53,630 bases of DNA from Thermoplasmatota archaeon (GCA_036019775.1 JAYXXD010000003.1:1-53630), one strand, 5' to 3'; positions 163 through 29,562 are shown, counted from the stretch's first letter. Translations and numbers: made by a program. The notes: a model not told the origin generated them from the sequence alone.

Positions 163-690
163 TCAATCCGATTTGTATTGGTGACAATGCAAAAAATATT
201 GCTGAATCATGTCATTCTGGGATTTATTCTCAGGTCCTATTTTTGGTATTAAGTTAGATAACTGTGAAATTGCTTCGGAAACCGAATAGTCTCCACTTCG
301 AATCAGTATACAGGCAAGAATCATACCGGTCCTGCCTATTCCTGCACTACAATGAACGACGATTCTCTTATTTTCATTTAGTTCAATGAGGATCTTCTCT
401 ACAAGAGAAATAAGATTACTTAAACTTGGGACCCCTCTGTCTTGAATTGGGAAATGGATAATCGTAAAGTTGTGGTTTTCAATATCAATCAACTTATTCT
501 CTCCAGTTTTTTCGATAAACTCGCTGATCGGATTCGTGGAGATGACGATGTCGATTTCATTATCCAGCCATGAATTGATAATTGCACCATGACTTTGCTC
601 AAAGCGACCAAACGGCATCGGACTTCTGAACAGCTTCCAATTCTGGCTGTTTGGAATGTCAGTTATTGGATCGGTTTTTCCTAGTCTCAT
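163..690 (-). CDS. Cys-dependent protein-tyrosine/dual-specificity phosphatase family protein
   Basis: Signature VVHCSAGIGRTG (HCxxGxxR), general-acid loop FPIQDRGVP, Q-loop-like PENKSQ. Confidence 0.9.
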   Translation of the reverse strand: MRLGKTDPITDIPNSQNWKLFRSPMPFGRFEQSHGAIINSWLDNEIDIVISTNPISEFIEKTGENKLIDIENHNFTIIHFPIQDRGVPSLSNLISLVEKILIELNENKRIVVHCSAGIGRTGMILACILIRSGDYSVSEAISQLSNLIPKIGPENKSQNDMIQQYFLHCHQYKSD

Positions 691-1635
691 TCAACCACTG
701 CTAATAATTTTTGAAATCCCATCTGAGAGGGATGTGCGTGCAGACCAACCAATCAGGCCTTCGATTAAACTACAATCTGCTAATCTCCAGTCAGGGTCTC
801 CAGACAAACGAATCGTGTAATTTACTTCGTAGTTTAACTTCATTTTTTTTGCAATTAGGTCTGCAAGTTCATGAATTGTACACGATTCTTCAGAACCAAT
901 GTTAACGACTGTAGGCAATTCAACCTTAGCTTGCATAAGACCTATGATGGCGCTTACACAGTCATCAATAAACAAGAACGACCTTGTTTGACTACCATCA
1001 CCATCGATGTTGATTGGTCTTGATTTTCTTATGGCATTGAAAAAGTTTGGAAAGACTCTGCCATTTCCATTGAGAGTAGTGTCCATATTTGGACCATACA
1101 CATTAAAAATTCTCATGCTACAAGAATCCAAAGATTCTCTTTTTGCGTGCATAATAAGTTCCTCTCCCATGGATTTTGAGGTGCTGTAAACACTTTTGTC
1201 AGAAAGTAATTGATGATATCCAAAACTTTTCTCGGACATTTTCTGTTGAGATATCGCTCCACAACTCCCATAAACCTCACTTGAGGATGCGTATAAGAGT
1301 CGACATGAATTCAATTTTGCGTGCTCAATCATGTTCAATGTACCAGCAGTATTGGGTAAGATTACATCAAAAACCTGCTTTTTGAATAGGCGAGGAGCCG
1401 CTACTGATGCAAGATGGAAAATGCCGTCCAATTCTTCTTCAATCTTTACTTTGCTTATACAGGTTCTGATGACTTTGACATTTGCGATATTTCGTCTTGG
1501 ATAACTTGTGACATTGTTGTCAACGACAATGATATTGTGCCCTTGGGACACTAAAGTATCAACCAAATTTCTTCCAATAAATCCCTCGCCTCCACTGACT
1601 AAATACGTTTTTGATTTTCGATTAAGCATCTCCAT
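691..1635 (-). CDS. NAD-dependent epimerase/dehydratase, UDP-glucuronate decarboxylase (UXS)-like extended SDR
   Basis: GGEGFIG, HLASVAAP, ASSSEVYG, YxxxK (YSTSK), RIFNVYGP and GDGSQTRSF match UXS-type motifs. Confidence 0.85.
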   Translation of the reverse strand: MEMLNRKSKTYLVSGGEGFIGRNLVDTLVSQGHNIIVVDNNVTSYPRRNIANVKVIRTCISKVKIEEELDGIFHLASVAAPRLFKKQVFDVILPNTAGTLNMIEHAKLNSCRLLYASSSEVYGSCGAISQQKMSEKSFGYHQLLSDKSVYSTSKSMGEELIMHAKRESLDSCSMRIFNVYGPNMDTTLNGNGRVFPNFFNAIRKSRPINIDGDGSQTRSFLFIDDCVSAIIGLMQAKVELPTVVNIGSEESCTIHELADLIAKKMKLNYEVNYTIRLSGDPDWRLADCSLIEGLIGWSARTSLSDGISKIISSG

Positions 1636-4600
1636 TTACCCCCCATAATTTGTAACCTTTTTTCCATGATGGACTCTGAAGACCTGGATCGATATCCATC
1701 ACCTTTCGTTGTGATCTTTCAAGAGGAATATCGCTTAGAAAGTGCCCGCAGAGTGCGCAGTATGTTTTCATCATGTCTAGGAATTGCCACGGGTGATCGG
1801 GGAGTTCATCAAATCCCAATCCAAAATTAAATATCCGTTCAATACCACCTGCAATGGCGCAATGATGGTAGCCATATGGAGACAAGCCGATCCCAGAGTC
1901 TTGAGTAATATAACAACCCTTGGTGAAATCTTGGTTTTTCCACTCTTCGATATCTTTTGGTGCGTAATTAAATGGTTCAAAATGCTGAGTAGCTGCTTCT
2001 CTGTCATGTTTAAACGAATTGTCGTATCTCCATTTTTTGGGTATTGCTGATAAATTCTTTATCGTTTTTCGACTGACTCCATTTGAAATAACCTTTCTTT
2101 CTGTATCAGGACTATTTTGTTCCAACCATTCTTCAATCATCATGATAATTTCCACGAAATTTGGGTGAAGTGTCGGTTCACCACCGAGGATATGGATGCT
2201 TTCCCATTGCTTACCTTTTCTCGATGAACTCTCAAGAAATTCTTGGATCATTTGAATTGGCATATGCATATTACTTGGCGCTTGCGCGCTTGATCGACTA
2301 CAACCAGCACAAGTCAAATTACAAAAATATGTAATATCAATTTCCAATTTGTTGAGGTTTGGGATGTAGTTCGTTCTTCGTTCATCTTCCAGAGAATTTG
2401 AAAACTTCCTATCATAGTTGAGGATATCAAACCCATTTGTGGATATTCCTTCAGAATTCTGTTCATTGGTGCTCAAAGCCAAATTATGGTTATCTGGTGC
2501 ATAATACGATACCTTATGTTCGATACCTAGCGGCCGGTGAACAAGGTGAGCGCGAAGGTTGATGTTCTCTCCATTAAGGGCGATTAACTCCTTACAAACC
2601 ATCTTATCAAACAAAATTTCTCTGGGATTTAGTTCGATAATTTTCGATTGATTATTTGTACAGATTTCGCTGAGATACTCTCCTATCACATCCTTTGAAA
2701 ATTCACTGAATCGCTTCCTGACAATTGTGATTTTTCCTGGATGTTCACTGATTAATTCCAATAACCATTCAAGTTTGTTTGACTTCGTTTGGTCGCAAAA
2801 TATAACCAAACCGGCATCGACATCAACTTGCTTAGCTATACTTACAACTAAACCTCTCAAAAAGTGTTGAATCGGTTTCCTTGTATGAGTGTAGAATACG
2901 AGTTTTTCCTTTCTTTCTTCATATTTCCACAAATGCTCAGATTCAACGATATCCCAATGCCCTCTTTGTTCATCTGGAATCTTTCCTTGTTCGACTAAAT
3001 CAATACATCTGTCATAGAACTCAAAATTTTTCTTTACGCTGTTCATTGGATGAATGTAGTAAGTGCTACCAAAACCTCCTCTGAGCGATTGCCAATCGCT
3101 CATGTTTTGGAATTTCTCAATCGATCTGTACCAACTTCGCTCGAATTTTTTATCGACTAGATTGTTAGGATATGGCCTTTGTTGTAGCAAACGTTTCAAA
3201 TCGAACAAACCACATCTTACTTCTGGCACGAAGCTTCCTTGATACGCATTAAAATGTGTCTCAGCGTCCTGTGGAATGTTAAATCCAACGCCAAATGTAT
3301 TTTGTAACTTGATAGCTTCATGCATCTCCGTTATGGATTTATCATCCACTGAACAATGAAAGAGAACATCGCAATCCATTTGGAAAACATATCTTGTTTG
3401 TATTTGCTCAAATCCCCATAATTGAGGAAACAGCGGAACTCCAGACTTCGTATGTGTAGAGATTGAACTGAGGCCAAACCACTCCTCCAGACAATGCATT
3501 ACGAGTCGTTTATCCTCATTTGGCGAAATAAGAATCTCATCGATCCAATTCTCTTTCTTGAGTCTCTGAGCTTCATCGAACAAACGATCTAGATTTCCGT
3601 CATCGTGTTGGCGCAAGAAGTTGGTTCGCTTCGGATCAATCAACAATACAGTCTTTTCGAAAATATCGAATCTTGTAACCTGCCGAACGATATGCTGAAC
3701 TTGATTTCTAATTAACCTGTAATCCATTGCACATGTTTTGATCAATAGAGTAGTGTTCTCGTGGTTTACCTTATCTGCTTTGATATCCCTTGCTGGTTTT
3801 CGAAAGAAACCTTGATTCAAATTGTACAATTGTACTTCACGTGAAAAGAAATCCTCAAAACCTTCAAATTTTTTCATTTGTCCTATGTTATTTCTGAAAG
3901 TTTTTGTCAATACTGAAAGCTCATGGGAGGAATAGCCTAACACGAAGGAAAGGTATAATCTCAAACACATGTCTCTGAAAAATCGAGCCTCAAATGGAAC
4001 AATTGAAGATCCTATATCAATATATGATAACGCATTTTTCTCGTCAATGTACATATTTTTCTTATTCACATTTAAACAAACAATTCGGCTTTTTATGCAG
4101 GAAGATATGAATCTGCTAATCATTTCGCGAGATACATCTTCAGGTTCATTGTTTGGTTGAAATTTTGAGGTTGCAGTCCATTGACCATCAATAGCTTCCC
4201 AGGAAACCTTGAGTATTGGAGCGTCATCAAGGGATGATAGCCAACTTATTTGCTCTTCATTGATGGTTTGTTTGTTGAATGTCTTGACAACTTTATCGCT
4301 ATGCCTGAATACCATTCCTTCAAGGCCCCAATCAATGCATTCTATCGAAGTTGAATTTGTGTTCAATGAGTTGTAAAGTAGCTGCCTTGATTCAGAATAT
4401 TTCCCCGAGAGAATGTTATTCTGAGTATTGTTGCCCTTCAGGTGATAATTTGCGTGTTTGAAACCAGTCAATATTTGCCCTTTATCTTGGTGTTTGAGTA
4501 AGAGTTTTGAAACCAACCAATGATCTTCTGCAGAATCTACCTCAGGATAATAGATTCGGAAGGAATTTCTTTTCCACAAATTACAGGATGGTAACTCTGC

Positions 4601-5152
4601 GGTCTCTTCTCCATCTGCCATTTTCTCCAATCTTGAGAGAACAAATTCATGGTTCTTGAAATCTGCAGTTACAGGGTTGTCTCGAGTCAGCTTTTCATCG
4701 TCCAGAATCAAATCATTTCCTGCTAGAGCCCATTGAATGTGCATATTTTTTATTTGATTGTGTATGTTCCTCAGTGCGAACTCATTTTGAAGAGTATCAT
4801 CAGAATCAAGCCTACATATCCACGTATCATTGGGGAAAATTTGTCTGCAAATTTCATATGCAAAATTTCTTCCTCTTGCAACGTTACATTCTGGTATTCT
4901 AGCGATGTAAATTCTACTATCTTCGATGACATAATCTGAGGTTCCATCGTCCAGAATTAACATGATACTATTCGTTTTGCTCTTCTGTTGTAAAAAGGAC
5001 TCAACAGCAGGAATCGGCCCATTAGGATGATTATGGATCAATGTTGTCACGACAACATCTACGCGGTCAGGGTCGACTATCTTTTGTGATAATGTAATAT
5101 GCTGCCCATACATGACATCTGAAAGTTCAATCAAGTCACTCATGAATTTCAC
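1622..5152 (-). CDS. Multidomain protein: GT2 + protein-kinase-like + second GT-A domain + degenerate GT2 + C-terminal radical SAM
   Basis: N-terminal GT2 (ILDDG, ARGRN, RLDSDD, AEDH). Kinase-like WGLEGMV..VVK..NVNKKN..IDIG. Second DxD domain (QMDCDV). Radical SAM CNLTCAGC at 2300-2323 with GGEPTLHP and C-terminal CALC. Confidence 0.8.
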   Translation of the reverse strand: MKFMSDLIELSDVMYGQHITLSQKIVDPDRVDVVVTTLIHNHPNGPIPAVESFLQQKSKTNSIMLILDDGTSDYVIEDSRIYIARIPECNVARGRNFAYEICRQIFPNDTWICRLDSDDTLQNEFALRNIHNQIKNMHIQWALAGNDLILDDEKLTRDNPVTADFKNHEFVLSRLEKMADGEETAELPSCNLWKRNSFRIYYPEVDSAEDHWLVSKLLLKHQDKGQILTGFKHANYHLKGNNTQNNILSGKYSESRQLLYNSLNTNSTSIECIDWGLEGMVFRHSDKVVKTFNKQTINEEQISWLSSLDDAPILKVSWEAIDGQWTATSKFQPNNEPEDVSREMISRFISSCIKSRIVCLNVNKKNMYIDEKNALSYIDIGSSIVPFEARFFRDMCLRLYLSFVLGYSSHELSVLTKTFRNNIGQMKKFEGFEDFFSREVQLYNLNQGFFRKPARDIKADKVNHENTTLLIKTCAMDYRLIRNQVQHIVRQVTRFDIFEKTVLLIDPKRTNFLRQHDDGNLDRLFDEAQRLKKENWIDEILISPNEDKRLVMHCLEEWFGLSSISTHTKSGVPLFPQLWGFEQIQTRYVFQMDCDVLFHCSVDDKSITEMHEAIKLQNTFGVGFNIPQDAETHFNAYQGSFVPEVRCGLFDLKRLLQQRPYPNNLVDKKFERSWYRSIEKFQNMSDWQSLRGGFGSTYYIHPMNSVKKNFEFYDRCIDLVEQGKIPDEQRGHWDIVESEHLWKYEERKEKLVFYTHTRKPIQHFLRGLVVSIAKQVDVDAGLVIFCDQTKSNKLEWLLELISEHPGKITIVRKRFSEFSKDVIGEYLSEICTNNQSKIIELNPREILFDKMVCKELIALNGENINLRAHLVHRPLGIEHKVSYYAPDNHNLALSTNEQNSEGISTNGFDILNYDRKFSNSLEDERRTNYIPNLNKLEIDITYFCNLTCAGCSRSSAQAPSNMHMPIQMIQEFLESSSRKGKQWESIHILGGEPTLHPNFVEIIMMIEEWLEQNSPDTERKVISNGVSRKTIKNLSAIPKKWRYDNSFKHDREAATQHFEPFNYAPKDIEEWKNQDFTKGCYITQDSGIGLSPYGYHHCAIAGGIERIFNFGLGFDELPDHPWQFLDMMKTYCALCGHFLSDIPLERSQRKVMDIDPGLQSPSWKKGYKLWGVNGDA

Positions 5153-6818
5153 TCCATTTTTGGTATGCTTCGGTCCATTCTTGAGATTTGTTTTTGGGGT
5201 TATCGTTTATCCAGGGTGGTTTGAAAACCCTTGATTTGAATCTTCCACACATCCTACAGAACTCTTCGAGTAAGTCCAGCATATTATCATCAATGTGTGG
5301 AATCTCTTTTCGGCCCAAATCTAAACCAAGTATCCGATCGATACCCCCAGCAAGGGTGCAAGGGTAATACCCATTTGGCGTTAATCCAATTCCGCAATCT
5401 TCAATATTTGAGCACCCATTGGAGAAATCCAACTTCTTGTATCTTTTATCATCAACTGGTGCCATGTTGAATGCGTAAAATCCCTCTTGATGTGCTGATG
5501 TCTTTGAAGTGTTTTCTACGTGAAAAAAGGGAGGTATTCGAATAATATTTCTTTTTACTTTACGCCCAAAACCATTCGTTGTGACCTCAAGCCTCGTCCG
5601 TGGATACACCGATTTATACTTGGAAAACATGTACAAGATTTCCTCAAAATCGGGGTGTAACGTAGGTTCCCCGCCAAGCAGTCGAATGCGCTTCCAGTAA
5701 ATTTTCCGTTTAATCGAATCTTCGATGAAGTTAGAAATTTGATCTAAATGTATATGCATTTTTTCTGGAGCTTGTCGACATGACCTATTGCAACCATAGC
5801 AATTCAGATTGCATTCATAGGTTAAATCGATCTCAATTTTATCCCTTGACCGAGTGAATTGTCGGCCAAAGATTTTTGTCAATGATCTCCGATTTCTAAA
5901 TCGCCACCATGCTTGCATGAGATTCCATCTTCGGAGTGCGAATCCTTGTCCAAATCTTGTTTTGGGTGAAGGTGGTAATGCGGGAAATCCTGGCTCGTCT
6001 TTAGTTGTATCACTTATAGAAAACATATCTGCATCTACACCAAAAAATTTGGCTCTGGAAATAAAATTCTCCTCGTCTTTTTTGTTCATTAAATGCTTGT
6101 GCTTTACATAGAATTGCAGTAGACCAGTCTGCTTTCCTTTCGATTCTGACAGGGTTAACGATTCTCTTTCTCTGTCGAGGAAATAATTTACACTCACATT
6201 TTCTGTGAAAGCAATGCGTACGCCATTCATTGAGAGGATTCTAACTGCCAAATCTCGATCGTGAGTACAAAACAAGGATTCGTCAAAACATCCAGCGTTG
6301 TTGAGCAATTCTGTCTTCATAAATGTATTCGAACCTTGCCAACCGGGATTTGTGGAAAAAACGTCGCGCAACGTTATTTTGCTTGGTATTCTTTCTTCAA
6401 TTGACTCTCCGTCAAGAAGTGTTCGGATCCCTCCTATAACTACATCGTAACCTTTCATGAAATTGCTGTTCTCTTGGAGATGATGATCCAACCATTCATC
6501 ATCATCATCCAAAATTGCAGTCCATGAATTAGGGTAGTTTTTAGCGATGTAATCTAGACCATAATTCCAAGTCCCAGCTGCACTTGGGAATCCCTTATTT
6601 TTCAAATAAATCCCATCGGGAAAGAGATCAACAAAATTTTCCTTGTTTTTTTCTGATATTGATTTATCATCTGAATTGTCTACAAGTAAGACAACATCAG
6701 GACTGAGTGTTTGACGCTTGACAGAGGGTAGTGCTCTTGATTTTAGCAGTAAGGGGCGATTGTATGTTGTAATCAAAGCAACAATAACCTCATTATTCAT
6801 TTGCATGCCTCCAATCAA
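5136..6818 (-). CDS. GT2 glycosyltransferase fused to C-terminal radical SAM domain
   Basis: GT2 motifs ITTYNR, LLVDNSDD, AAGTWNYG, ILDDDD, FDESL..THDRD. Radical SAM CNLNCYGC (5790-5813), GGEPTLHP, TNG, C-terminal CRMC. The true start may be the ATG at 6800. Confidence 0.85.
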   Translation of the reverse strand: MIGGMQMNNEVIVALITTYNRPLLLKSRALPSVKRQTLSPDVVLLVDNSDDKSISEKNKENFVDLFPDGIYLKNKGFPSAAGTWNYGLDYIAKNYPNSWTAILDDDDEWLDHHLQENSNFMKGYDVVIGGIRTLLDGESIEERIPSKITLRDVFSTNPGWQGSNTFMKTELLNNAGCFDESLFCTHDRDLAVRILSMNGVRIAFTENVSVNYFLDRERESLTLSESKGKQTGLLQFYVKHKHLMNKKDEENFISRAKFFGVDADMFSISDTTKDEPGFPALPPSPKTRFGQGFALRRWNLMQAWWRFRNRRSLTKIFGRQFTRSRDKIEIDLTYECNLNCYGCNRSCRQAPEKMHIHLDQISNFIEDSIKRKIYWKRIRLLGGEPTLHPDFEEILYMFSKYKSVYPRTRLEVTTNGFGRKVKRNIIRIPPFFHVENTSKTSAHQEGFYAFNMAPVDDKRYKKLDFSNGCSNIEDCGIGLTPNGYYPCTLAGGIDRILGLDLGRKEIPHIDDNMLDLLEEFCRMCGRFKSRVFKPPWINDNPKNKSQEWTEAYQKWSEIHE

Positions 6819-8058
6819 TTACCTCAATTATTCCAGACTCTTGGACTTCTCCAATTAAATCACAAGGATCGGTCAAACAAGTATTCAATCCGTTATTAGT
6901 ACTGTAAAACCAGTACTCGTTCCAATTGTATTTGATGTGATCATGGTAGGTGGTTGAGCAATCACTACCCCCCTCATAGTTCGAGTAGCATTGATGACTT
7001 GAAGTGGTGTAAACTCCCGTTGAATCAAACACAATCTCGCTTACGAACACAACATCTCCTTCGCTAAGTGTCACATTTCCATCTAAAAATTTCGTTTCAC
7101 CAACAAGTTGAGACGTGCTCTCCCATCCAATAGTACCAGCCCCAATAACTGCGAGAATTACGGTTCCTGCAATCAACCCATATGTTATGACAGACATGAA
7201 TAGACTCGCTAAAATTGAGAAAGCGGAAGATGGGAAGGAGTTTTTTTTCTGCTTGAGAGCGGCGGCTAATTTTTCAGCATGATGGTGATGCCTTCGAACA
7301 TTATCTTCCAATCCGCGGGATTTCAGAATATGAAGCAACGAATTTCGTTCCGTATCGAATTTTGCTAAAGCGAAGGTATCTTTTGGTACACATTTTCCAT
7401 CAAAACCTCCCAACCCAGGCTCAAGATGCGCCATGTTTCCAATTCTTCGATCAACCCAAATCGAATTCATAACTTTCCGAGCTCGAGCATTGTGAAGGAT
7501 ACAAAGCCTTTCGATTTCACACGTGAATGTAACCTTTGTTGCAATGTATGCATTGTGTGCGAGTTTGGCAATTTCAGCCTCGATACATGTCATGATGATT
7601 CTTGGTACAGCATCATTCACCCAGGTGAACAAATCGAGAACTGATTTTGCAATTTCACTCGGCTCGGTAATGACTAACCTATCTGGATTTTCAAACCATT
7701 CAAGAGCATTTTTTTCTCGAAGATATTCGGGCATATAACAAATTTTTTGTGATGGGAATTCTTTATGCAAAGCTTCCATCGTATAGGGTTGTAATGTACT
7801 TTTCACGACGATTGTTCCATCGTATCCTGTTCGATTTAATCGATTAATAACCTCGTGAACGATACTCACGTCTAAACAATCATCATGGCCCGCATTCGTT
7901 GGAACGCAGACAAAGGCAAAATCAGAACTCAAAACGTCTTCCCAGTCACCGCGACCATCAATGTCATACCCGACGCATGAATGGTGCTTTGACATCCCGC
8001 TCAGGACGGAAGAGCCAACTGAACCCAAGCCAACTACAGCGATTTTCTTCATTCGCAT
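6793..8058 (-). CDS. UDP-glucose/GDP-mannose dehydrogenase-family protein lacking the C-terminal domain, fused to TM segment(s) and a small extracytoplasmic domain
   Basis: GLGSVG, YDID, CVPT, KST, PEYLRE, AKLAHN and catalytic GKCVPKD. After ~aa 275 a hydrophobic stretch (ILASLFMSVITYGLIAGTVILAVIGAG) precedes a Ser/Thr/Tyr/Cys-rich tail. Confidence 0.85.
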   Translation of the reverse strand: MRMKKIAVVGLGSVGSSVLSGMSKHHSCVGYDIDGRGDWEDVLSSDFAFVCVPTNAGHDDCLDVSIVHEVINRLNRTGYDGTIVVKSTLQPYTMEALHKEFPSQKICYMPEYLREKNALEWFENPDRLVITEPSEIAKSVLDLFTWVNDAVPRIIMTCIEAEIAKLAHNAYIATKVTFTCEIERLCILHNARARKVMNSIWVDRRIGNMAHLEPGLGGFDGKCVPKDTFALAKFDTERNSLLHILKSRGLEDNVRRHHHHAEKLAAALKQKKNSFPSSAFSILASLFMSVITYGLIAGTVILAVIGAGTIGWESTSQLVGETKFLDGNVTLSEGDVVFVSEIVFDSTGVYTTSSHQCYSNYEGGSDCSTTYHDHIKYNWNEYWFYSTNNGLNTCLTDPCDLIGEVQESGIIEVIDWRHANE

Positions 8059-8558
8059 TCCTCCAGTTCATCGTAAATTGAGAAACTGTCTACCTCTCTT
8101 TTAAGATCACTGCTCAAACACTGGTTGTTTCTCGCAAGAACGTGGACGTTTTTCCCAAGACATTTCAATTCCCGAACGAGGGGAACAAATCCACCATCGC
8201 CTGTGACCAAAAGAAAAGTAGAGATGTGAGGATAGTTGATTGCAATCTTTAGAGCTTCAACGGTAAGGTGAATGTCTGCTGCATTTTTCAAAAATGAAGT
8301 TTTTGTGTTTTTCGACCTATCTTCAAAAATTTTCTTAACGTTAGTAAAGCGAGGCTCGATACCAAATCTGTGCATCACACTGACTAAACTCCCATTTCGA
8401 TCTGAAAATCCAGCCAAGGCTAATGTAACACTCTTCCTACCTAGAGTCTCGATGTAGTTGTTTATCTTAGCAAAATCAATTTTATTTTTTCTGCCCTTTC
8501 GAGTATCAAGGTTTTCCCAATCGATTAATGTGGCTACAGATGCACAGATTGCTTGCAT
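8049..8558 (-). CDS. NYN (LabA/DUF88, PIN-fold) domain protein
   Basis: IDWEN, KNAADIHL, LLVTGDGGF..LV..LK..GKNVHV and SSDLKREVDSF follow the NYN pattern. Confidence 0.85.
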   Translation of the reverse strand: MQAICASVATLIDWENLDTRKGRKNKIDFAKINNYIETLGRKSVTLALAGFSDRNGSLVSVMHRFGIEPRFTNVKKIFEDRSKNTKTSFLKNAADIHLTVEALKIAINYPHISTFLLVTGDGGFVPLVRELKCLGKNVHVLARNNQCLSSDLKREVDSFSIYDELEECE

Positions 8559-8696: not shown

Positions 8697-9467
8697 ATGA
8701 AGACATTGGTGATTCCCCTATCGAGGACTGCCGTGGAGAAAGTTGACCAGCTTTTACAGCAATTCAGTTGTCCGAGAATTGTACTTATCCACACTGCAAA
8801 AATCGGTAGTACCGTTGATACGAATCTCAGACAACTTCAATCCTTTTTGTCCTCTAGAAACAAAAATCTTGAAATTATGGTCCAGCCACTAAGTTGTTCT
8901 GATTATCCATTTGCACTAGGGGAATCATTTTCTCGCTGGATTACTAGCGATGTTGAAAAAAACAGTACTCAATCATTTGATGTTGTCATCTCAGAGGATC
9001 TAGCATTGGGTTATTTCGTTGGATTAACATCACTTTCTCTTGAATCCATTCAATTACGATGTCATTTGTTGACAATAACAAATGATTTTACAAAACATGA
9101 TACGCATTTATTTGATCCTGAAAAAACGTTCAGAATTGCACAATTGCCACTCTTTGATGACATTAACAGAGCAAGAGATTTTTTCAGAGGAAAAAGTGGA
9201 ACATCTCGTATATTTTCCTATGTTCAGGCTTGGCATGATGAAGAGCGAAAGAGGTACAATGAGGATTCTTGGTTCAAGAGTAAAGACATACAAGAGTATG
9301 CAAAAAGAAATCGACAAGACCTAACACAGTCATTGATCACGAAACATCTTTCGATCATGGTTGACATGGGAGAATCGTTTCGAGTTATCGAACGAAATAA
9401 AGAAAACCAAACACTCTACAGGATAACGTCTGTTGGCAGGGCTTACAGTTGGCATAAGAAAAATTAG
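8697..9467 (+). CDS. Putative transcription regulator: N-terminal Rossmann-like (CARF/Csa3/DUF6293-like) domain + C-terminal winged HTH
   Basis: Beta-alpha N-terminus (KTLVIPL..RIVLIHT..FDVVIS), LP linker, wHTH (SKDIQ..LTQSLITKHLSIMVDMG..YRITSVGR). Divergent from the island operon. Confidence 0.6.
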   Translation: MKTLVIPLSRTAVEKVDQLLQQFSCPRIVLIHTAKIGSTVDTNLRQLQSFLSSRNKNLEIMVQPLSCSDYPFALGESFSRWITSDVEKNSTQSFDVVISEDLALGYFVGLTSLSLESIQLRCHLLTITNDFTKHDTHLFDPEKTFRIAQLPLFDDINRARDFFRGKSGTSRIFSYVQAWHDEERKRYNEDSWFKSKDIQEYAKRNRQDLTQSLITKHLSIMVDMGESFRVIERNKENQTLYRITSVGRAYSWHKKN

Positions 9468-9523
9468 AAATTCCTGATGGTAGTTCACGTTAATTTCAAA
9501 CAACATTGTTTCCTGGGCTGTTC

Positions 9524-10807
9524 ATGCACATTGTGATGGTCTCCGGAGAGTACCCTCCACGATGGGGTGGAATGGGTTCTGTCGTTTACAACCTTGCTGG
9601 CCACATGGCCCAACGCGGACACAAAGTGACCGTTATCACTCGAAAACACAAGCAAATGCCACCGACCCAAACAGGTGTTGAAGTCATTCCAGTTCGATGG
9701 GCTCCTCTACCGATGTCATTTACCAAGTCCTTTGGTAAGCACGCCATTAAGGCTCTCAATCAACTGAAGCGACGTCGCTCGATCGATGTTGTCAGTGTCC
9801 ATCTTCCCCTTGTTTCTTGGACTCGCAAACAGTTTCGGTACATCGAAGAAAACATTGCTCCAGTCGTGAGCACACTCCATGGTTCTTGGATTGGTGAGCG
9901 AGAAGGTGTTCGTCGAGCTGCATTGAATCGAGAGGCGGCAACGTGGAGAAATCCGAACGACCTCGCTATTCGCCTCACGGCTGGCTGGTATGCTCGTTAT
10001 GAGCGTGCAGGCGTCCTCGAATCAACATGCTGTGTAGCAGTCTCTCGCTCAACCAAAAAAGAGTTTCATGAATTCTACAAGATACCTGATGATTCGGATA
10101 TCGAAGTTGTACACAATGGATGCGATGCTCGCGTCTTCAGGCCTCCGAATAAAGACCATGAAAAGGAACAACTCGCACATGAACGAATTCGAAAAGAGTA
10201 CGGTTGTGCAGATGAAGAAGCTCTCAATTACGATCCAAAAACAAAGACGCCAATGATTCTTGCAGTTGGTCGCCTTGTCGCACGGAAAGGATATGTCTCA
10301 CTCTTGCGAGCATTACCATTGATTCTCAAAGAACATGAGAATGCGAAACTCGTCATTGTCGGTCGAGGGCACATGAAGAAAAAACTCCTGAAGATAGCAG
10401 AAGAATTAGGCGTTAGTCAATCGTTATTCATCAAGAGTGCAATGTCGTTTGAAGATCTTGCTCAACATTATCGTTCTGCAGATCTGGTCGTGTTCCCATC
10501 CTATTACGAAGGACAAGGACTCATCCCACTCGAAGCTCTTGCATCAGGAACGCCTGTTGTCACTGTTGACCAGGCCCCATTAACAGAAATGATTGATGAT
10601 ACGGTTGGAGGTCTCTTCGATCGTGGAGATTTCGTAGGACTTGCAAAAGCAGTTTGTGATGAACTCAATGGACACGTTCAGCGAATGAAGAAAGCAAAGG
10701 AAGGTCGAAAGCGCGTCCTCGAAAAATTCACCCTTGAAGGACAAGCAGAATCGTATGAGGACGTTTTCCTTCGTTCTGTTCAGAAACGACGTTGGCGCGA
10801 CTCTTGA
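9524..10807 (+). CDS. Glycosyltransferase family 4 (GT-B)
   Basis: EYPPRWGG, HNG.D, VGRLVARKG, PSYYEGQGLIPLEALASGTPVV (Ex7E). Start placed at ATG 9524. Confidence 0.92.
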   Translation: MHIVMVSGEYPPRWGGMGSVVYNLAGHMAQRGHKVTVITRKHKQMPPTQTGVEVIPVRWAPLPMSFTKSFGKHAIKALNQLKRRRSIDVVSVHLPLVSWTRKQFRYIEENIAPVVSTLHGSWIGEREGVRRAALNREAATWRNPNDLAIRLTAGWYARYERAGVLESTCCVAVSRSTKKEFHEFYKIPDDSDIEVVHNGCDARVFRPPNKDHEKEQLAHERIRKEYGCADEEALNYDPKTKTPMILAVGRLVARKGYVSLLRALPLILKEHENAKLVIVGRGHMKKKLLKIAEELGVSQSLFIKSAMSFEDLAQHYRSADLVVFPSYYEGQGLIPLEALASGTPVVTVDQAPLTEMIDDTVGGLFDRGDFVGLAKAVCDELNGHVQRMKKAKEGRKRVLEKFTLEGQAESYEDVFLRSVQKRRWRDS

Positions 10808-10816
10808 GTTGGAACT

Positions 10817-11287
10817 ATGCGTACTCGCCTCATCATCATGCGTCACGCCAAAAGCAGCTGGCCGGATGCAAATTTGGATGACCACGATCGTCCATTGAAC
10901 AAGCGTGGTCGCAGAGATGCACCCCGAATCGCACAGGAATTGCTCAATCGTGATTGGATTCCTGACCGAATTCGAGTGAGTTCTTCCAAACGGACCATTG
11001 AAACTCTTGAACTGATGGAACCAATCTCACTTAATTCAAGTATTGATGTTGAACCAAGCCTCTACCATTCAAACATAAGCACATTATTGCAAGCTGTTGA
11101 ACAAATTGAAGAAGGAAAGACAACAATGTTATTGAGTCATAATCCAGGAAGTGAGATTCTTGTTCATCAATTGTCAAATCGCCTTGAAGTGATGCCAACT
11201 GCAGCTGTTGCACTCTTTGAAAAAGAACAAAACGATTGGGCACTGATTGATGTGTTGCGACCAAAAGAATTGGAATATCTGAATTGA
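10817..11287 (+). CDS. sixA: SixA-type histidine phosphatase
   Basis: MRHAKSSW, DHDRPLNKRG, SS.KRT, SHNPG, MPTAA. Confidence 0.9.
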   Translation: MRTRLIIMRHAKSSWPDANLDDHDRPLNKRGRRDAPRIAQELLNRDWIPDRIRVSSSKRTIETLELMEPISLNSSIDVEPSLYHSNISTLLQAVEQIEEGKTTMLLSHNPGSEILVHQLSNRLEVMPTAAVALFEKEQNDWALIDVLRPKELEYLN

Positions 11288-11374: not shown

Positions 11375-11522
11375 AACAAAAGTAAACTATTCATGCACTT
11401 GATTATTTTTCATTTCTTAAAATTGTAGTAAATGCTCCACATTCAAATAGTAATCCGTGTGTGATACATGGACTTTTGAAAAACATAGGATGGTTTATTT
11501 TACACGATTCGGACGGAATAGC

Positions 11523-13523
11523 ATGAGTAAAGGCGAGAGGCATAGCGTCTCCATAATTGAAAAGGTTGAGATTTTCGGTTTATTCGGACTCTATGATGAG
11601 ATCATTGAATTTCAAGATGATCAAAATGCTGTTCTTCTCTACGGGCTAAATGGTTCGGGAAAGACAACAGTGCTATCCATAATTAAGTCCTTGTTGAGTA
11701 GAGACTACATATCGTTAATGCGACTCCCTTTTGAGAGGGTAAAACTCTCGACAAAGCGGATAATCCCCCGAGAGCACACAGATTATTTGTATCTGTATAC
11801 CGATGATGTAGAAGAAATGCTTGAGATTGATGGGCAAGTGAACAACGTTTTCGACCCGCATGAACCTATTTTGGAATGGTTTGAGGATGAAGATGCAAGG
11901 AGTTATGATATCCAAATCAATCTTCCAAATTTTATTGAACATGAGGTATATGAACTGATTAGACGGCCGAACTCGAAGATAGACGTGGGTATATCGGATG
12001 TCCATGGCAACATTGAGGCAGATACTATCGTAAACACAGTAGGATTTGTTTTCGAAGCGAGGAGAGAGATAAATAGGAAAATTCATACAAAAAGTAAAGA
12101 ATTGGATCAGATTTTTTCTGATCTCATGCCTTTGTTTCAACAACAAAACGACATATGGAAATTGATGGGAGGATCTGTTTCTAAATCTGAATATATACGT
12201 ATGTTGTCTGAATGGGACTTAACCGATGATGATTGGGATGATATCGCCTCTAATTATTTTAATTCAAACTCATACTCGATATCGAGAGAATCAAATCAAC
12301 GGTACCAAATCGATAAGAACAAACTATACTCGACAAAGATACAAATAATTGACGAGGAGGGAGAAACAGTCTCTCCGATTGATTTTCTCAATTACCATCT
12401 GCCAGCGGAACTTTATGCTAATATTCAAATCAAAAATGCCGCATTTTATAACCCTGAAATTCAATTTGAAAACAACGAGAATACCCTGTTCCCTGGGTTT
12501 CTAAAAAATAACATGAATCGATATTATCACAGCCATATGTTATCGGATTTTTTCCTCGTGAAGGACGAACATTTGCGCCCCCAAGGTTCGCTTTACTGGT
12601 CCGAGAACCATCACGCACCCAATCTTTACAGAGATAATGTCAATATGGTGTTCCTGCCCGTATCTAGGATACTTGGTGATCGATATAATTCAAACTCAGA
12701 TTTAATCGAATTCGCAAAACAAGTTGAAAAGAGACATTTTGAAGCAATCGATTTCCTCAAAGAGCAGGTTCGGAACATAAAAACCATGATTGAGGCGGAG
12801 GGACTAGAGGCAGAAGATGACATTCAGTTTTATCAACAACCATACAGCGATGACGTCCGCAAATGGGGCTTCAATACTTGGAATGACATCAGCCGAGATC
12901 GTGAAAACACTCATCTCTGGATCGAGCTTTCTCTATTGGAACTCAATCAAAATGAGGAGAAATTTGCCATATGTATTCCAGATTTGCAAGAAACAATTGA
13001 GGAATTAGATGGTATGCTAGCGACTTCACCTGAAAAAAACCCAAAACAGGTGGTATTAAATCAACACAATGTAAGTGCTGAGAGCGTTTTATCCGCGATT
13101 TCTGATCTTTCCTCATTTTGGATTATTACAAAAATCCTAAGTAAACACTTCGACAAAACAATCACTTTAAACAAAAATGGCAAAGTAGAGGTATTCAACT
13201 CAATGGGTAAGAATATCCCTTTGTCGCTATTATCCTCAGGAGAAAAGCAACTCACACTTCTATATTGGAAAATTTTTAGTTCCATGAAAAGAAATCGAGA
13301 CACCCATGAAAATATTGTGATCATTGATGAACCCGAGCTTTCGCTACACATTTCTTGGCAAAGAGATTTTATCTCTAATTTACTTGACTTACTCGTGTTT
13401 CAGGAACGCTATGGCGATGAAGCAGAAGGTGGATATAACGTCAAAATTTTTGTTGCAACACACTCTCCGAGTATATTGGCAAATAACTTTGATTTTGCCA
13501 AAGAATTAGGGGCTGGAGAGTGA
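11523..13523 (+). CDS. ABC/SMC-like ATPase (AAA_15/AAA_21 family; PARIS AriA-like)
   Basis: Walker A GLNGSGKTT, signature LSSGEKQ, Walker B/D-loop IIDEPELSLHISWQ, H-loop ATHSP, with a long insertion between the halves. Start placed at ATG 11523 (ORF open from 11457). Confidence 0.88.
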   Translation: MSKGERHSVSIIEKVEIFGLFGLYDEIIEFQDDQNAVLLYGLNGSGKTTVLSIIKSLLSRDYISLMRLPFERVKLSTKRIIPREHTDYLYLYTDDVEEMLEIDGQVNNVFDPHEPILEWFEDEDARSYDIQINLPNFIEHEVYELIRRPNSKIDVGISDVHGNIEADTIVNTVGFVFEARREINRKIHTKSKELDQIFSDLMPLFQQQNDIWKLMGGSVSKSEYIRMLSEWDLTDDDWDDIASNYFNSNSYSISRESNQRYQIDKNKLYSTKIQIIDEEGETVSPIDFLNYHLPAELYANIQIKNAAFYNPEIQFENNENTLFPGFLKNNMNRYYHSHMLSDFFLVKDEHLRPQGSLYWSENHHAPNLYRDNVNMVFLPVSRILGDRYNSNSDLIEFAKQVEKRHFEAIDFLKEQVRNIKTMIEAEGLEAEDDIQFYQQPYSDDVRKWGFNTWNDISRDRENTHLWIELSLLELNQNEEKFAICIPDLQETIEELDGMLATSPEKNPKQVVLNQHNVSAESVLSAISDLSSFWIITKILSKHFDKTITLNKNGKVEVFNSMGKNIPLSLLSSGEKQLTLLYWKIFSSMKRNRDTHENIVIIDEPELSLHISWQRDFISNLLDLLVFQERYGDEAEGGYNVKIFVATHSPSILANNFDFAKELGAGE

Positions 13524-13575: not shown

Positions 13576-14415
13576 ATGATGAGAGCGATTAACAATGGAG
13601 AAAAATTCCTCATGTTGGAGGGTAATTTTGATCATTCCTTTTTCTCAAAATTACTGAGAGAACATCGTATAAGAGGGGTCACATTACTCAACCTTCATGA
13701 AGAAGACATAAATGTCGAATCGAATAAAGATTACATTCTTGGTTTCGTAAATGAGTATGCGGATGATTATTCCAACCTCTATGCATTTGTTGATGCAGAT
13801 TACGACTTTGCTGTAGATTCGATGAATCAACCTGGAGACTCTATTCTTCCATACTCGAAGAATATTTTCGACACCTCTCCGGCTACTGATCTAGATACAA
13901 AATTAATTTCATATCACAATGTCGAAAATTACCTACAATCAATCGGATGCAGGGATTCTGAGCACATCAGAATCTTGGCTATTTCGTCTATGCTTGGTTG
14001 TTTGAGATATCACAAACACAGCATGGAGAGATCAAATCATGGTGTCGTGTACGCAAATTTCTCGGGACTGTTGAAGAATTTGACTTCAGTTACTGAAAGA
14101 GTTTCATTCGAAAGTCTCGTAGGTGCTTTGAAGAAAGAATCAAAATCAATGGGATCATTAACAAAAAAATATTTTGAAAAAATGATGAAAAAAGGGGTAT
14201 ATGAGGACACATTAGCGAATTTTCAGAGGAAAGACCTCGCTCAATGCTCATACATTAGAGGGCATGACATTATGGAGGTTATTTGTGCAGTAAAAGGATG
14301 GAAAAAAATCCACAAGAATAAATTGGAGAAGGAATTAATAAAATCAAACTTAAAAAATTCCGATTTTGAAAGTATCGTGTTTAATTTAAATCAGAGTCAA
14401 GATTTAGATGCATGA
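13576..14415 (+). CDS. DUF4435/TOPRIM-like protein (PARIS AriB-like)
   Basis: LEGNFD (EGxxD), FVDADYD (DxD), DLDT and C-terminal RGHD. Directly downstream of the ATPase. The frame is open back to a CTG at 13513 overlapping the ATPase stop. Confidence 0.75.
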   Translation: MMRAINNGEKFLMLEGNFDHSFFSKLLREHRIRGVTLLNLHEEDINVESNKDYILGFVNEYADDYSNLYAFVDADYDFAVDSMNQPGDSILPYSKNIFDTSPATDLDTKLISYHNVENYLQSIGCRDSEHIRILAISSMLGCLRYHKHSMERSNHGVVYANFSGLLKNLTSVTERVSFESLVGALKKESKSMGSLTKKYFEKMMKKGVYEDTLANFQRKDLAQCSYIRGHDIMEVICAVKGWKKIHKNKLEKELIKSNLKNSDFESIVFNLNQSQDLDA

Positions 14416-19509: not shown

Positions 19510-20112
19510 ATGGCAAAAGGACTCCACCATTATGTTCGTGAAACTTGGAAGAAGCCAAAAGAGGCTCTCCCGCACATGTTCCGTCAGACTCGGATGGCAC
19601 AGTGGCGTCGTGAACCTGTCAACTGCCGCATTGAGCGCCCAACCCGTCTCGATGCAGCTCGCCGACTTGGTTACAAAGCCAAGCAAGGTGTTGTTCTCAT
19701 CCGTACCCGTGTCCGCCGTGGTGGACTTCGCAAGGGTAAGATTCACATGAAGCGAAAGCCATCCAAGGCTGGTATCTCCAAGATCACCATGGCCAAAAAC
19801 ACTCAACGAATCGCAGAAGAGCGTGTCGCTCGTCACTTCCCGAACCTTGAAGTTCTCAACTCATACTGGGTTGGCGAAGATGGAAAGCACAAGTTCTTCG
19901 AAGTTATTCTGATTGATACACACCATCCTGCTATCATCAACGATAAGCAACTCGGTGTCTTTTGTCAAGCGAACGGTAACAACAGCCACCGAGGTCGTGC
20001 ATACCGTGGAAAGACTTCCGCTGGAAAGCGTGGACGTGGTCTCTTCAACAAGGGCAAGGGAGCAGAAAAGCTGCGACCTTCTCTCAAGGCGAACCTCAAC
20101 CGTGGCAAGTGA
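19510..20112 (+). CDS. rpl15e: 50S ribosomal protein L15e
   Basis: ERPTRLDAARRLGYKAKQG, NLEVLNSYWVGEDG, GRAYRGKTSAG. Confidence 0.98.
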   Translation: MAKGLHHYVRETWKKPKEALPHMFRQTRMAQWRREPVNCRIERPTRLDAARRLGYKAKQGVVLIRTRVRRGGLRKGKIHMKRKPSKAGISKITMAKNTQRIAEERVARHFPNLEVLNSYWVGEDGKHKFFEVILIDTHHPAIINDKQLGVFCQANGNNSHRGRAYRGKTSAGKRGRGLFNKGKGAEKLRPSLKANLNRGK

Positions 20113-24178: not shown

Positions 24179-27100
24179 ATGGTCGAGGAAGCAATTCGTC
24201 TGATTCGACCTGGCTTGCATCAACCAAAACGTGGACGATTGGCCACTTTCTTGATTCTGGTCCTACTTATCCCGATTTTCCAACCGGTTCAAGCGGATGT
24301 TCTAGTTGAAAAGGATGATTTCGGATTGATGGAGAAACTTTCAGATCTTATGGAACTGCAAGAATCAAGCGATGATTTGGTGATTGCTGCGGGCTCATCA
24401 GCTTCCTCTCTTGCACTTGTCGAAGCAGCAAAGCGAGAAAGTCGTGAAGGGGATCCATTGAACGATTCGACGGAATATCTCAGTCAGGCGCAATTGAGGG
24501 ATACAACACCGTTTGAACCTGATCATCCTCGGCCGTATGAGATTCTTCTCGATACCAGCTCACAGCCTGACGGATGGCCAAACAATCTGATTCAAACGCT
24601 CTTTTCACTCGAATCATGGGACATCACCGATCCTCTAGCAGTGGGAATTAACACCTATGCACTGTACATTAATTTCTCAAGCAGGGATAACGGCCCACAA
24701 TACGAGGCTTGGGATTATGGGACGTTTACTGGAGAATTATTTGTTGGTTCAGACCTTGTCCTGTTTGAGAATTACATCGACATTGACGGTGATAATGTTG
24801 ACGATGTCTCCATCTCGTTGACCGTTCTTGGGCTGCTAACGCTCAATGAAGGATTTGGATTTGAACCACCATTGGATCCTTTCCAATTCCCTCCAAGCAT
24901 ACCCGATACCCTATGGCTGCGACCAACATTCCAATGGAAAATTGATTATTTGAATGAGAACGACCCGATTTGGGATGAACTCGCCCATATGGAAGTCTCC
25001 TTGCTGAAAGGGTTGGCCTTTGATTCTGCACTACAAGAATCACAATCCTATGCTCTTGTTCTGGATACACGCCTCACTCAACCTCCAAACAATTTCAGAG
25101 TTGAAGTTGGAATTCAAGAATTCCGATTTAGCATTTCGAACACAATCAGCAATATTGCTGGATTATTAGCCGACTTCATTACTGGAGGGATTTTGCCAGC
25201 AAATGCAGTTTCGCTGACAAGTGTTTCAGCGCCATATTCAATTTCCATCCGAAACTCGAATTCAAATTCTGAGAATAAGCAAACTGAATGTGATGAAACA
25301 TACTATGACGTGTTTAACGATCATGGTTCAGCGAGTGAAACGCACAAATGCGGCTATGGTATTGGTATTGGTTTCATCCAATTCGACCAGGTCGACCAAC
25401 AAGGACAAGTTGAGATTATCGACATGGGTTATCTCGACGTCGGATTCCATCCTGAACTTGGCTCCAACCAACTGCCTGAAGAGATAGATCTTGTTTTACG
25501 CAACGATAATCTTGGTGACAACACCTTCGACACGGTTGAATTGTACAGCGATGTAGGTGCTGATCTGTGGTTGCATTACTTTGAGGATCGTAGCAATACG
25601 CTTGAAGGGGGCTCTTTTGGAAACACCACTGACTCTCGGTTGTGGATACGCGGAATACCCTCAGGCTCCCTCCCTCAGGAAGAAATCAATGCCATCTTCA
25701 CCATGATTGGAGAAGCCCCAGGAAGTGCAAATCTACCGGGCGATATTCCAGACCGTCTTTCGTTTATTCTTGCTATCAAGAATTTTTCCGGAGATGCTAC
25801 GGCGAACGAGAACGACCTGACCTTGCCCGTCAACCCAGCAGCGCCCCCAGCGACACTGATCATGATTGCTGGTACAGAACGAATCAAATCATTATCATAC
25901 AATTCAACATTGAAGCGAGGCGGATACGCTAATGATGTCAGTTCGTTAACCATTCAAGTGGAAAATCTACCAGAAGTACTCATCCTTAAGGGAAGTTTTC
26001 AGCTTTCTTCAACTGGCCTTTCACGTGTAAACTTCAACAATCCTGACCTCAACACAATTGCTCAACTTCTCGACAATGCTTTGCTAACGCTGGTTGAAAT
26101 TGTCCTCGATTTGGGTTCGATTCTCAACACACTCCCAGATTTGATTGTAGGAACAGCAGGCAGTTCAGGTGGTGAGCTTGAAGTTCTCTGTCTAAGTCAA
26201 GTTCGCCAGACTTGGTCGAATGGCGCTGTGCGTGGTCCAAGTAGTCTTGGAGAGATTTCAATGGCCATTGGAAGCAGTGATCACCCTTGGCTGACTGATT
26301 CTGATCACATCCTTCTTTCACAAGATACGGAAATTGAGCAGATCGATGGAAGGGATGGACCTGTCGAACCACTCGTTCCAGTGGCGATGAGCATTCGAGT
26401 TTCAAACATTTCAAGGGTGTTTCAATCCTACGATCCTGTGACCAGCGTTCGTGCACTGGAGTTGCAAGGTCAACAATCTGGTGCACTTTTGGTGGGCCAC
26501 ATCCGGCATTCAGGTACCAATTTTGCGAATGTTACTGCTCAATCTGCGATGATTTCCAATCGACCCAGCGATTTAAGTGTCGTTCAAGATCCTGCAAAAT
26601 TGGTTTACACAGCTAGCGAACCAATTGGAACGATCACATACGGAGGTGAACAAGGGGCTCAACGGAATGCGATTCGACTCGAAGGTTTACCTGCCCAGTT
26701 CCAATTGAATCTTGGTGATTCGGTTGGTTTCCAGGCCGAGACACCCATTACTTCGATCATGGTTCAAATGACGAATGCAACTACGCCGCTCACAATGAAC
26801 GGAGATCATTTCCGGTTCTGGGTCGATGCTGATACAGCTCAGGCATCATTGAGCGCGAAGATTTCCAACGTACAATCGGTTCAACGTTATTCACCGATTG
26901 ATGCAAATTCAACAGGGCCTGAAGGAAGCGCCCGGTATGCCCTTCAACGTCAAGTATCATCTCCATTCAGCATCTCAATGGAAGATGTGAGCAACTACGA
27001 TGACCCGTTCCTTGGTCTCAATGGTATGATGCGACTTGAACCACTACCAGCAAACCTTGAGGTTGTTCTTCCCAGCGACTTGGATTCCAGTGGCATTGAA

Positions 27101-29498: not shown

Positions 29499-29562
29499 TA
29501 GTTCGTTGTTCAAACAATTGACCCATAGCGATAAATGCGTCATCTAAACGAGGTTGATTTCA

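Follow-up and report, generated by a model that had tools for sequence, protein, structure and literature searches.

What would a single archaeal protein do with two apparently intact glycosyltransferase modules, a kinase-like domain, a further glycosyltransferase fold that lacks its catalytic motifs and a radical SAM (S-adenosylmethionine) domain, all in one chain? The question is raised by an open reading frame (ORF) at 1622..5152, minus strand, of a 53,630-nucleotide (nt) contig from a Thermoplasmatota archaeon (GCA_036019775.1, JAYXXD010000003.1:1-53630), the whole of which is referred to here as the window. A sequence-only reading of the window had described the product as an assembly line of very unusual architecture that glycosylates, phosphorylates and radically modifies one substrate. 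The answer that we favor, at somewhat better than even confidence, is that the five-module protein is a soluble cytoplasmic multi-enzyme of a horizontally mobile gene cassette, which would build a short glycan and then modify it by radical chemistry.

In the five-module protein itself, Pfam detected only the radical SAM core (aa 940-1034), and homologues were therefore used for module assignment. A search over 5.8 billion proteins returned 61 matches, 31 of them full or near-full length at 38-69% identity, and the nearest came from metagenome-assembled genomes (MAGs) of Poseidoniales (marine group II, MGII). An alignment of 29 sequences showed five conserved blocks, and its profile was searched against PDB sequences. 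Modules 2 and 3 (aa 265-760) were folded with a 48-row alignment, giving a predicted local distance difference test score (pLDDT) of 92.6 and a predicted template modeling score (pTM) of 0.64; modules 4 and 5 (aa 750-1176) gave a pLDDT of 86.9 and a pTM of 0.72. The folds were compared with known structures by Foldseek and, independently, by VIA-align (Z scores). Residue counts given below refer to 29 sequences for modules 1 and 3, 53 for the kinase-like module, 47 for module 4 and 44 for the radical SAM module. The ORF and its parts are as follows.

1622..5152, minus strand: whole ORF with five modules, 1176 aa counted from GTG, probable start at ATG 5143
4358..5065, minus strand: module 1 (aa ~30-265), glycosyltransferase family 2 (GT2; GT-A fold), with R114-L-D116-S-D118-D119 and E209-D210-H211 intact
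3812..4345, minus strand: module 2 (aa ~270-447), protein-kinase-like fold, with Asn361 at the position of the HRD Asp
2918..3775, minus strand: module 3 (aa ~460-745), GT-A domain outside any Pfam family, with Q591-M-D593-C-D595
2399..2905, minus strand: module 4 (aa ~750-918), GT2 fold lacking the catalytic motifs
1625..2359, minus strand: module 5 (aa ~932-1176), probable twitch-type radical SAM, with C944-x3-C948-x2-C951 and G990-G-E992

The motifs named in the earlier reading (L115-D-S-D-D119, Q591-M-D-C-D595, S771-I-A-K-Q775 and L782-V-I-F-C-D787) are all present. Its division of the chain into a GT2 (aa ~30-265), a kinase fold (~270-440), a second DxD domain (~465-745), a decayed GT2-like stretch and a radical SAM domain (~935-1176) was borne out by the profiles and models, in which segments 2-4 took up kinase and GT-A folds.

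For module 1, profile positions 30-186 matched TarP (6h1j; E = 6.6e-10) and the chondroitin polymerase K4CP (E = 7e-9), with the family motif RLDaDD aligned on the LDSDD of both. D116, D118 and D119 were present in 29/29 sequences, and the GT2-typical E209-D210-H211 was invariant. The query alone fell under the Pfam GT2 cutoff (13.8 versus 23.3 bits), and Pfam GT2 was detected in 26 of the 29 aligned members. In module 3 the DxD residues D593 and D595 were likewise invariant (29/29), as were D506, R514, R691-G-G693, H701 and K707. VIA-align placed the model (residues 196-472) on GnT-I (1fo9) with a Z of 14.4 over 204 aligned residues (root mean square deviation [rmsd], 4.1), followed by POMGnT1 (Z 14.2), GnT-II (Z 12.7) and ColGalT1 (Z 12.6). 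The modeled fold thus appears nearest to those of GnT-I and POMGnT1, and because numerous further GT-A and nucleotidyltransferase folds score Z 10-12, the family assignment is left loose. The GT13/GT16 N-acetylglucosaminyltransferases GnT-I (1fo9), POMGnT1 (5ggf) and GnT-II (5vcm), the best fold matches with 201-224 residues aligned, are DxD-type GT-A enzymes like module 3 but differ from it in sequence, with identities of 4-10%. No Pfam match to module 3 was obtained even at an E value of 10, nor any PDB sequence match, and its nearest clusters in the ESM Atlas carry no Pfam family. A full HMMER pass over 1.84 billion representatives (E ≤ 1e-3) gave 346 representative relatives, which range from stand-alone proteins of 275-294 aa to giants of ~1700 aa. 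In P0061, P0062, P0106 and about 60 more of these giants, a kinase-like domain adjoins a methyltransferase-like stretch, and module 3 and a GT2 come after them; a precomputed listing gives P0061 the Pfam methyltransferase families PF13489 and PF13649, and the pairing of kinase and methyltransferase presumably resembles that of WbdD-type glycan chain terminators.

The Foldseek list for module 2 was headed by protein and RIO kinases (Lyn, RIO1 and CDK2; E ~1e-6), and in VIA-align model residues 1-182 matched the RNase L pseudokinase (Z 10.8, 171 aligned), Rio1 (Z 10.7, 152 aligned) and YihE (Z 10.5, 147 aligned). The module shares with RIO kinases, YihE/SrkA and the RNase L pseudokinase a bilobal fold, a Gly-rich loop, the beta3 Lys, the catalytic-loop Asn and a DFG-like Asp. 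G276 and E278 of the Gly-rich loop, K290, N366, D379 (in a DIG motif), G381 and D394 were found in 53/53 sequences, and because K290, N366 and D379 are invariant, the domain probably still binds ATP and Mg. The family profile "tsNIKRsN...yiDiG" aligned on "HRDIKPEN...ADFG" of Aurora A with the K, N and D coinciding (E = 0.035), and 148 kinase chains matched with exact spacing; it is because of these matches that Asn361, five residues before N366, is placed at the catalytic-base site despite the E value. This site is Asn in 50 of the 53 sequences, Asp in 2 and Thr in 1, as in some pseudokinases, and because of this replacement ordinary phosphotransfer by the module appears doubtful. No Pfam kinase family was matched, the ABC1 model appearing only at an E value of 0.19.

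The model of module 4 (residues 1-168) has a GT2 fold, matching WrtF (Z 11.9), TarP (Z 10.9) and SpsA (Z 10.8), and profile positions 778-928 matched the N-terminal GT2-like domain of TagF (E = 4.3e-8) and heparosan synthase (E = 2e-4). Where 19 of the 47 homologues have (I/V)DDAS...LDxDDAL, the query has FCDQT...LNPREIL, and 28 homologues, all from the near clade, are degenerate in the same way. In addition, an acceptor-side segment of ~30 residues is deleted; the bacterial version carries a conserved Asp-Tyr. Judged by its motifs, module 4 is a pseudo-glycosyltransferase in the near clade, leaving a complete catalytic signature in three modules. In their GT-A fold and pattern of motifs, modules 1 and 4 agree with TarP/TarS, SpsA, K4CP and the heparosan synthase PmHS2, of which K4CP and PmHS2 also carry several glycosyltransferase domains in one chain. 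Unlike these enzymes, the five-module protein has lost the DxD of module 4, shows no evident membrane or export coupling and has gained the kinase-like and radical SAM domains.

Module 5 scored 36.2 bits against the Pfam radical SAM model (PF04055; cutoff, 29.5). Beyond aa 900 the protein has exactly seven cysteines (C944, C948, C951, C1080, C1098, C1132 and C1135), all conserved in 43-44 of the 44 sequences, with the CX3CX2C triad and the SAM-binding G990-G991-E992 each in 44/44. Foldseek ranked SpeY top (E = 6.9e-6); by VIA-align, model residues 183-399 matched SpeY (Z 12.9, 205 aligned, rmsd 3.4) and BtrN (Z 11.3, 183 aligned), with BlsE also among the structural matches (Z 8.6). SpeY (PDB 7wzv) and BtrN (PDB 4m7s/4m7t) have the same ~240-aa core, CX3CX2C, GGE and C-terminal set of four cysteines; unlike them, module 5 is fused to glycosyltransferases or, in bacteria, encoded beside them. 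BtrN is described in a passage of one article as oxidizing a carbinol to a ketone and as having a Cys4 auxiliary cluster (PMC10337720). Membership in two other radical SAM families was considered and rejected. The match to viperin (pVip) reached 23 bits in NCBIfam against a cutoff of 180, and the PADLOC pVip match (E = 5.9e-8) covered profile positions 4-78 of 257; MoaA reached 32.7 bits against a cutoff of 231 over positions 7-86 of 308. Both likenesses are thus weak and confined to the N-terminal radical SAM core, within the first ~80 profile positions.

The modules were then mapped onto the loci found in a survey of one genome per species. The survey gave 72 loci in Poseidoniales archaea and many bacteria, the latter including Vibrio, Photobacterium, Shewanella, Marinobacter, Pseudomonas, Zoogloea, Comamonas, Myxococcus and Corallococcus as well as Phycisphaerales, Fibrobacteria and Bacteroidia. 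The same part list recurs (a small GT2, a radical SAM protein, module 1, the kinase-like module, module 3 and module 4) in varying packaging. The radical SAM domain shares an ORF with module 3 in 14 loci, is joined to the small GT2 in 4 and has a gene of its own in 32; in 23 loci, among them 10 short contigs, none was seen. Eight loci encode module 1 as an ORF of its own. Two Bacteroidia loci, L062 and L063 (Porphyromonadaceae, Bacteroidales), combine the small GT2 with modules 1 and 3 and the radical SAM domain in single ORFs of 1583-1625 aa, in which the kinase-like module was not detected by tblastn with the window sequence. Gammaproteobacterial and betaproteobacterial cassettes add a conserved protein of 250-290 aa (L058:10884-11675, minus strand; L020:10894-11661, minus strand; and 22 other loci) with an invariant GNG...PSxG...HNWLGERR. 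Its 264-aa form had no Pfam, NCBIfam or PDB-sequence match, and we take its motifs (GNGPG...PSxG...HNWLGERR) to be reminiscent of GT42-type sialyltransferases.

Because the parts recur fused and split in many combinations across the 72 loci, the modules are likely to work together, and this fusion/fission (Rosetta-stone) pattern is the best evidence for their cooperation. The part of the earlier reading that placed the modules in one pathway thus gains support from this comparison; its phosphorylation step is doubtful, given the Asn at the catalytic-base site, and its fourth module would be a pseudo-glycosyltransferase. The description of the architecture as very unusual also needs to be divided, since only a small, mostly archaeal clade has the exact five-module chain but the component set is widespread in bacteria. 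Within the archaeon's own order the gene turned up once in a sample of 150 other genomes and in none of 58 high-quality ones. Among plasmid records there was a single match, a 607-kb Salinivibrio replicon, and 50,697 phage records searched with aa 265-760 yielded no homologue.

The gene itself belongs to a tight operon of six genes, all on the minus strand. In addition to the five-module gene, the operon comprises the following, listed from its head.

8049..8558, minus strand: NYN-domain protein, head of the operon
6793..8058, minus strand: nucleotide-sugar dehydrogenase-like protein, syntenic in L003 and L004
5136..6818, minus strand: upstream partner of 560 aa, a small GT2 in one chain with a second radical SAM domain, paralogous and probably of twitch type (GT2-rSAM)
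691..1635, minus strand: NAD-dependent sugar epimerase/dehydratase of the short-chain dehydrogenase/reductase (SDR) type
163..690, minus strand: dual-specificity (Cys-based) phosphatase, also present in L003, L009 and L038

The order NYN, dehydrogenase-like, GT2-rSAM, big protein and epimerase is shared by the MGII loci L003 and L004. The 1176-aa frame noted earlier is indeed a single open frame without internal stops when counted from GTG. Three codons inside it, at nt 5143, is an ATG with GGAG 8 nt upstream, and the database protein P0002, 100% identical to the five-module protein, is 1173 aa long; because of these two observations a start at ATG 5143 and a product of 1173 aa are likelier. 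Counted from this ATG, the gene shares its first 8 nt with the end of the upstream gene, stop codon included, and its last 14 nt with the start of the downstream gene. When both sequences were scanned, no transmembrane segment was found in the five-module protein or in its GT2-rSAM partner. In the dehydrogenase-like protein the C-terminal UDP-binding domain is missing and is replaced by a stretch rich in His, then a hydrophobic segment (aa 278-313) and a tail rich in Cys, a form that is kept in L003 and L004.

Module 5 and the radical SAM domain of the partner protein share 39% identity over 237 aa. In a tree of 55 radical SAM domains two groups were separated (support, 97/88). Of the 17 rows in clade A, 15 are fused to the C terminus of the big protein and two long-branch rows (L067 and a fragment in L068) are not, and the 38 rows of clade B are either proteins on their own or joined to the small GT2. 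One domain of each clade occurs in the window and in its archaeal relatives, and on this tree the two copies in the window are old paralogues rather than products of a recent duplication.

From the folds, conserved residues, gene order and fusion pattern we infer the following catalytic steps, acceptor and product. The five-module protein, its GT2-rSAM partner, the dehydrogenase-like protein and the SDR would together build up a short glycan on an acceptor in the cytoplasm, which they would afterward modify chemically. Modules 1 (GT2) and 3 (GnT-I-like GT-A) would be two active GT-A domains of the inverting type, each transferring a sugar from a nucleotide sugar at its DxD/metal site. The kinase-like module would bind ATP/Mg and, because Asn replaces the catalytic Asp, may act as a weak or atypical kinase or as a nucleotide-gated scaffold; module 4, as a dead GT2, would probably hold glycan or nucleotide. 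Module 5 would cleave SAM and abstract a hydrogen atom from a sugar carbon, passing the electron to a predicted all-Cys auxiliary cluster to give a keto-sugar or a derivative, in the manner of SpeY and BtrN.

Several points weigh against this proposal. No curated family covers the protein, all NCBIfam matches being far under their cutoffs. Module 1 was assigned from profile-to-sequence matches, the alignment of module 2 on Aurora A is weak, and the kinase-like module is without the catalytic Asp. The likeness of module 5 to SpeY and BtrN is at the level of the fold (16% identity), and because peptide-modifying twitch/SPASM enzymes score as well (anSMEcpe, Z 9.7; SuiB, Z 9.2; ChlB, Z 8.6), the sugar substrate is putative. 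Finally, defense or mobile genes next to 21 of 36 bacterial loci suggest a role different from ordinary glycan synthesis.

This last observation comes from a survey of 36 bacterial loci whose flanks reach 5 kb or more on either side, in which the DNA up to ~6.5 kb from the cassette was scanned for ORFs with a minimum length of 150 aa (110 or 130 aa in the first two batches). Hallmark defense or mobile genes lay within that distance in 21 loci, 2 were ambiguous and 13 had none; the count has no matched control, which makes it a lead and not a result. The neighbors include Cas genes (L032 and L050), McrBC (L058), GmrSD (L028, L041 and L048), MksE, WYL and RadC (L049), HNH and WYL (L020), and transposases and integrases at other loci. 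In Shewanella insulae and Marinobacter spp. (L046, L051 and L059) the cassette occupies exactly the gap between hsdR and hsdM-hsdS in a type I restriction-modification operon, and in Salinivibrio a four-gene cassette unit adjoins IS110 and ISAs1 transposases. In the window, ~3 kb from the operon, a 688-aa AAA_15/AAA_21 ATPase is encoded at 11457-13523 (plus strand) that strongly matches AriA (E = 8.7e-25) and also PtuA in PADLOC. It is followed at 13576-14415 (plus strand) by a 279-aa ORF without a family match, and the two may form a PARIS- or Septu-like defense pair in the archaeon. Pfam matches to polysaccharide export or polymerase proteins were found in 0 of the 36 bacterial flanks, where poorly modeled membrane proteins could be missed. 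The absence of exporters and the island context suggest that the product is intracellular, or else a decoration put on a lipid-linked precursor before the host's machinery flips it.

Of the alternatives to a glycan-building and glycan-modifying multi-enzyme, an artifact of assembly or gene calling, or a decaying pseudogene, is the one that can practically be dismissed. It is prompted by the source genome, a 73%-complete MAG of 1.66 Mb in 155 contigs of which the window is one whole contig, and by the public contigs, which in all four assemblies break near 2440-2547. These breaks, however, coincide with a C>T variant at 2534, and at ≥99% identity the contigs of four runs, each from a different study, cover 1500-5300 with no insertions, deletions or joints. 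The module 4/5 region is bridged by X2 record 1 (1500-2515), X4 record 8 (2296-2547) and X5 record 12 (2419-2942), and modules 1-4 are spanned by X3 record 5 (2440-5300) and X4 record 9 (2523-5300). Homologues of the same architecture come from many sources at the identities given above, the same gene pair is carried by a genome of the same genus (G064), the catalytic motifs are invariant and the frame has no internal stop. A second possibility, that all five modules are catalytic and that glycosylation, phosphorylation by a true kinase and radical modification all take place, would fit the invariant ATP/Mg-binding residues of module 2 and the Cys-based phosphatase co-encoded in the window, L003 and L009, which could complete a cycle of phosphorylation and dephosphorylation. 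Sugar or glycan kinases with the protein-kinase fold also exist (WaaP, WbdD and POMK) and offer functional analogies. Against it stand the Asn at the catalytic-base position and the loss of DxDD from module 4, here and in 28 of 47 homologues, and we regard it as improbable.

A role for the cassette as a new antiphage or conflict system in place of a housekeeping glycan pathway is harder to set aside, and we consider it possible, if unlikely. The cassette could yield a small antiviral compound, either a (pseudo)oligosaccharide or a derivative of a nucleotide sugar; infection could trigger the modification of a phage or host macromolecule; or a lipid-linked surface-glycan precursor could be redecorated so that adsorption is blocked. 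Its neighbors in 21 of 36 loci, the position inside hsd operons, the transposases in Salinivibrio, the AriA/PtuA-like ATPase, the sporadic occurrence in the archaeon's own order and the lack of an encoded exporter all point this way. In PADLOC, however, the big protein, the small GT2 and the 264-aa partner matched nothing beyond the generic pVip match to the radical SAM N terminus; 13 of the 36 loci have no such neighbors, the count of 21 lacks a control for background island frequency when accessory genes of any function gather in islands, and no homologue occurs among the phage records searched. As a tentative extension, held with the same reserve, the combination of small GT2, multi-glycosyltransferase/pseudokinase protein and twitch radical SAM could represent an unrecognized class of defense-island systems in bacteria and marine archaea. 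In such a system nucleotide sugars, an ATP-sensing pseudokinase and radical sugar oxidation may lead to an antiviral glycan or pseudo-oligosaccharide or to a redecorated receptor precursor, and the archaeal protein may be the most fused form, uniquely with both ancient radical SAM paralogues. Less likely than a defense role, and in our view distinctly improbable, is a protein or peptide substrate that is glycosylated and then cross-linked or epimerized by radical chemistry, as in ribosomally synthesized and posttranslationally modified peptides (RiPPs) or glycocins, with the kinase-like domain binding the peptide or protein. Twitch/SPASM enzymes often act on peptides, and those matching module 5 do so at Z 8.6-9.7; peptide maturases are among the weak NCBIfam matches, kinase folds bind protein substrates, and the S-glycosyltransferase SunS is among the fold matches of module 4 (Z 9.5). 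The SunS match is, however, generic to GT2, the two best structural matches of module 5 are carbohydrate dehydrogenases, and both the archaeal operon and several bacterial loci also encode nucleotide-sugar enzymes. Neither a conserved short precursor ORF nor a RiPP recognition element was noticed, no search having been aimed at them.

The protein combines two known kinds of enzyme, a multidomain glycosyltransferase and a probable twitch radical SAM enzyme. Full-text searching of the literature yielded no paper describing the cassette family or the physical fusion of radical SAM to glycosyltransferases. A passage of one study notes many glycosyltransferase fusions in Poseidoniales and does not mention a five-module fusion (PMC11237513). 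Neither the GT-A domain of module 3, for all its 346 representative relatives, nor the kinase-like domain belongs to a Pfam or NCBIfam family, and the fusion/fission pattern provides a ready map of cooperating proteins. In marine group II archaea, which to our knowledge have no cultured member, the gene is a rare, laterally acquired island gene that may shape the cell surface or virus resistance. Compact four-gene versions occur in culturable Vibrio, Photobacterium, Shewanella, Marinobacter and Salinivibrio, and both the chemistry and the possible antiphage role are therefore directly testable.

Other genes of the window were noted on the plus strand beside the operon and farther away. A divergently transcribed 256-aa ORF at 8697-9467 has no family match and is conserved beside the operon in L003 and L004 (tblastn); by eye, its C terminus resembles a winged-helix regulator. 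A GT4 glycosyltransferase follows at 9506-10807, which also matches the Pfam "GT4-conflict" model (E = 1.3e-16), and after it, at 10817-11287, a short histidine-phosphatase-like ORF. A gene for ribosomal protein L15e, by which the organism is recognizable as an archaeon, lies at 19510..20112. Three very large plus-strand ORFs probably encode surface or secreted proteins: a 1556-aa ORF without a Pfam match (24179-28849), a 1493-aa ORF with subtilase S8 and CARDB domains (29554-34035) and a 955-aa ORF with Ig-like and NPCBM-associated domains (34102-36969).

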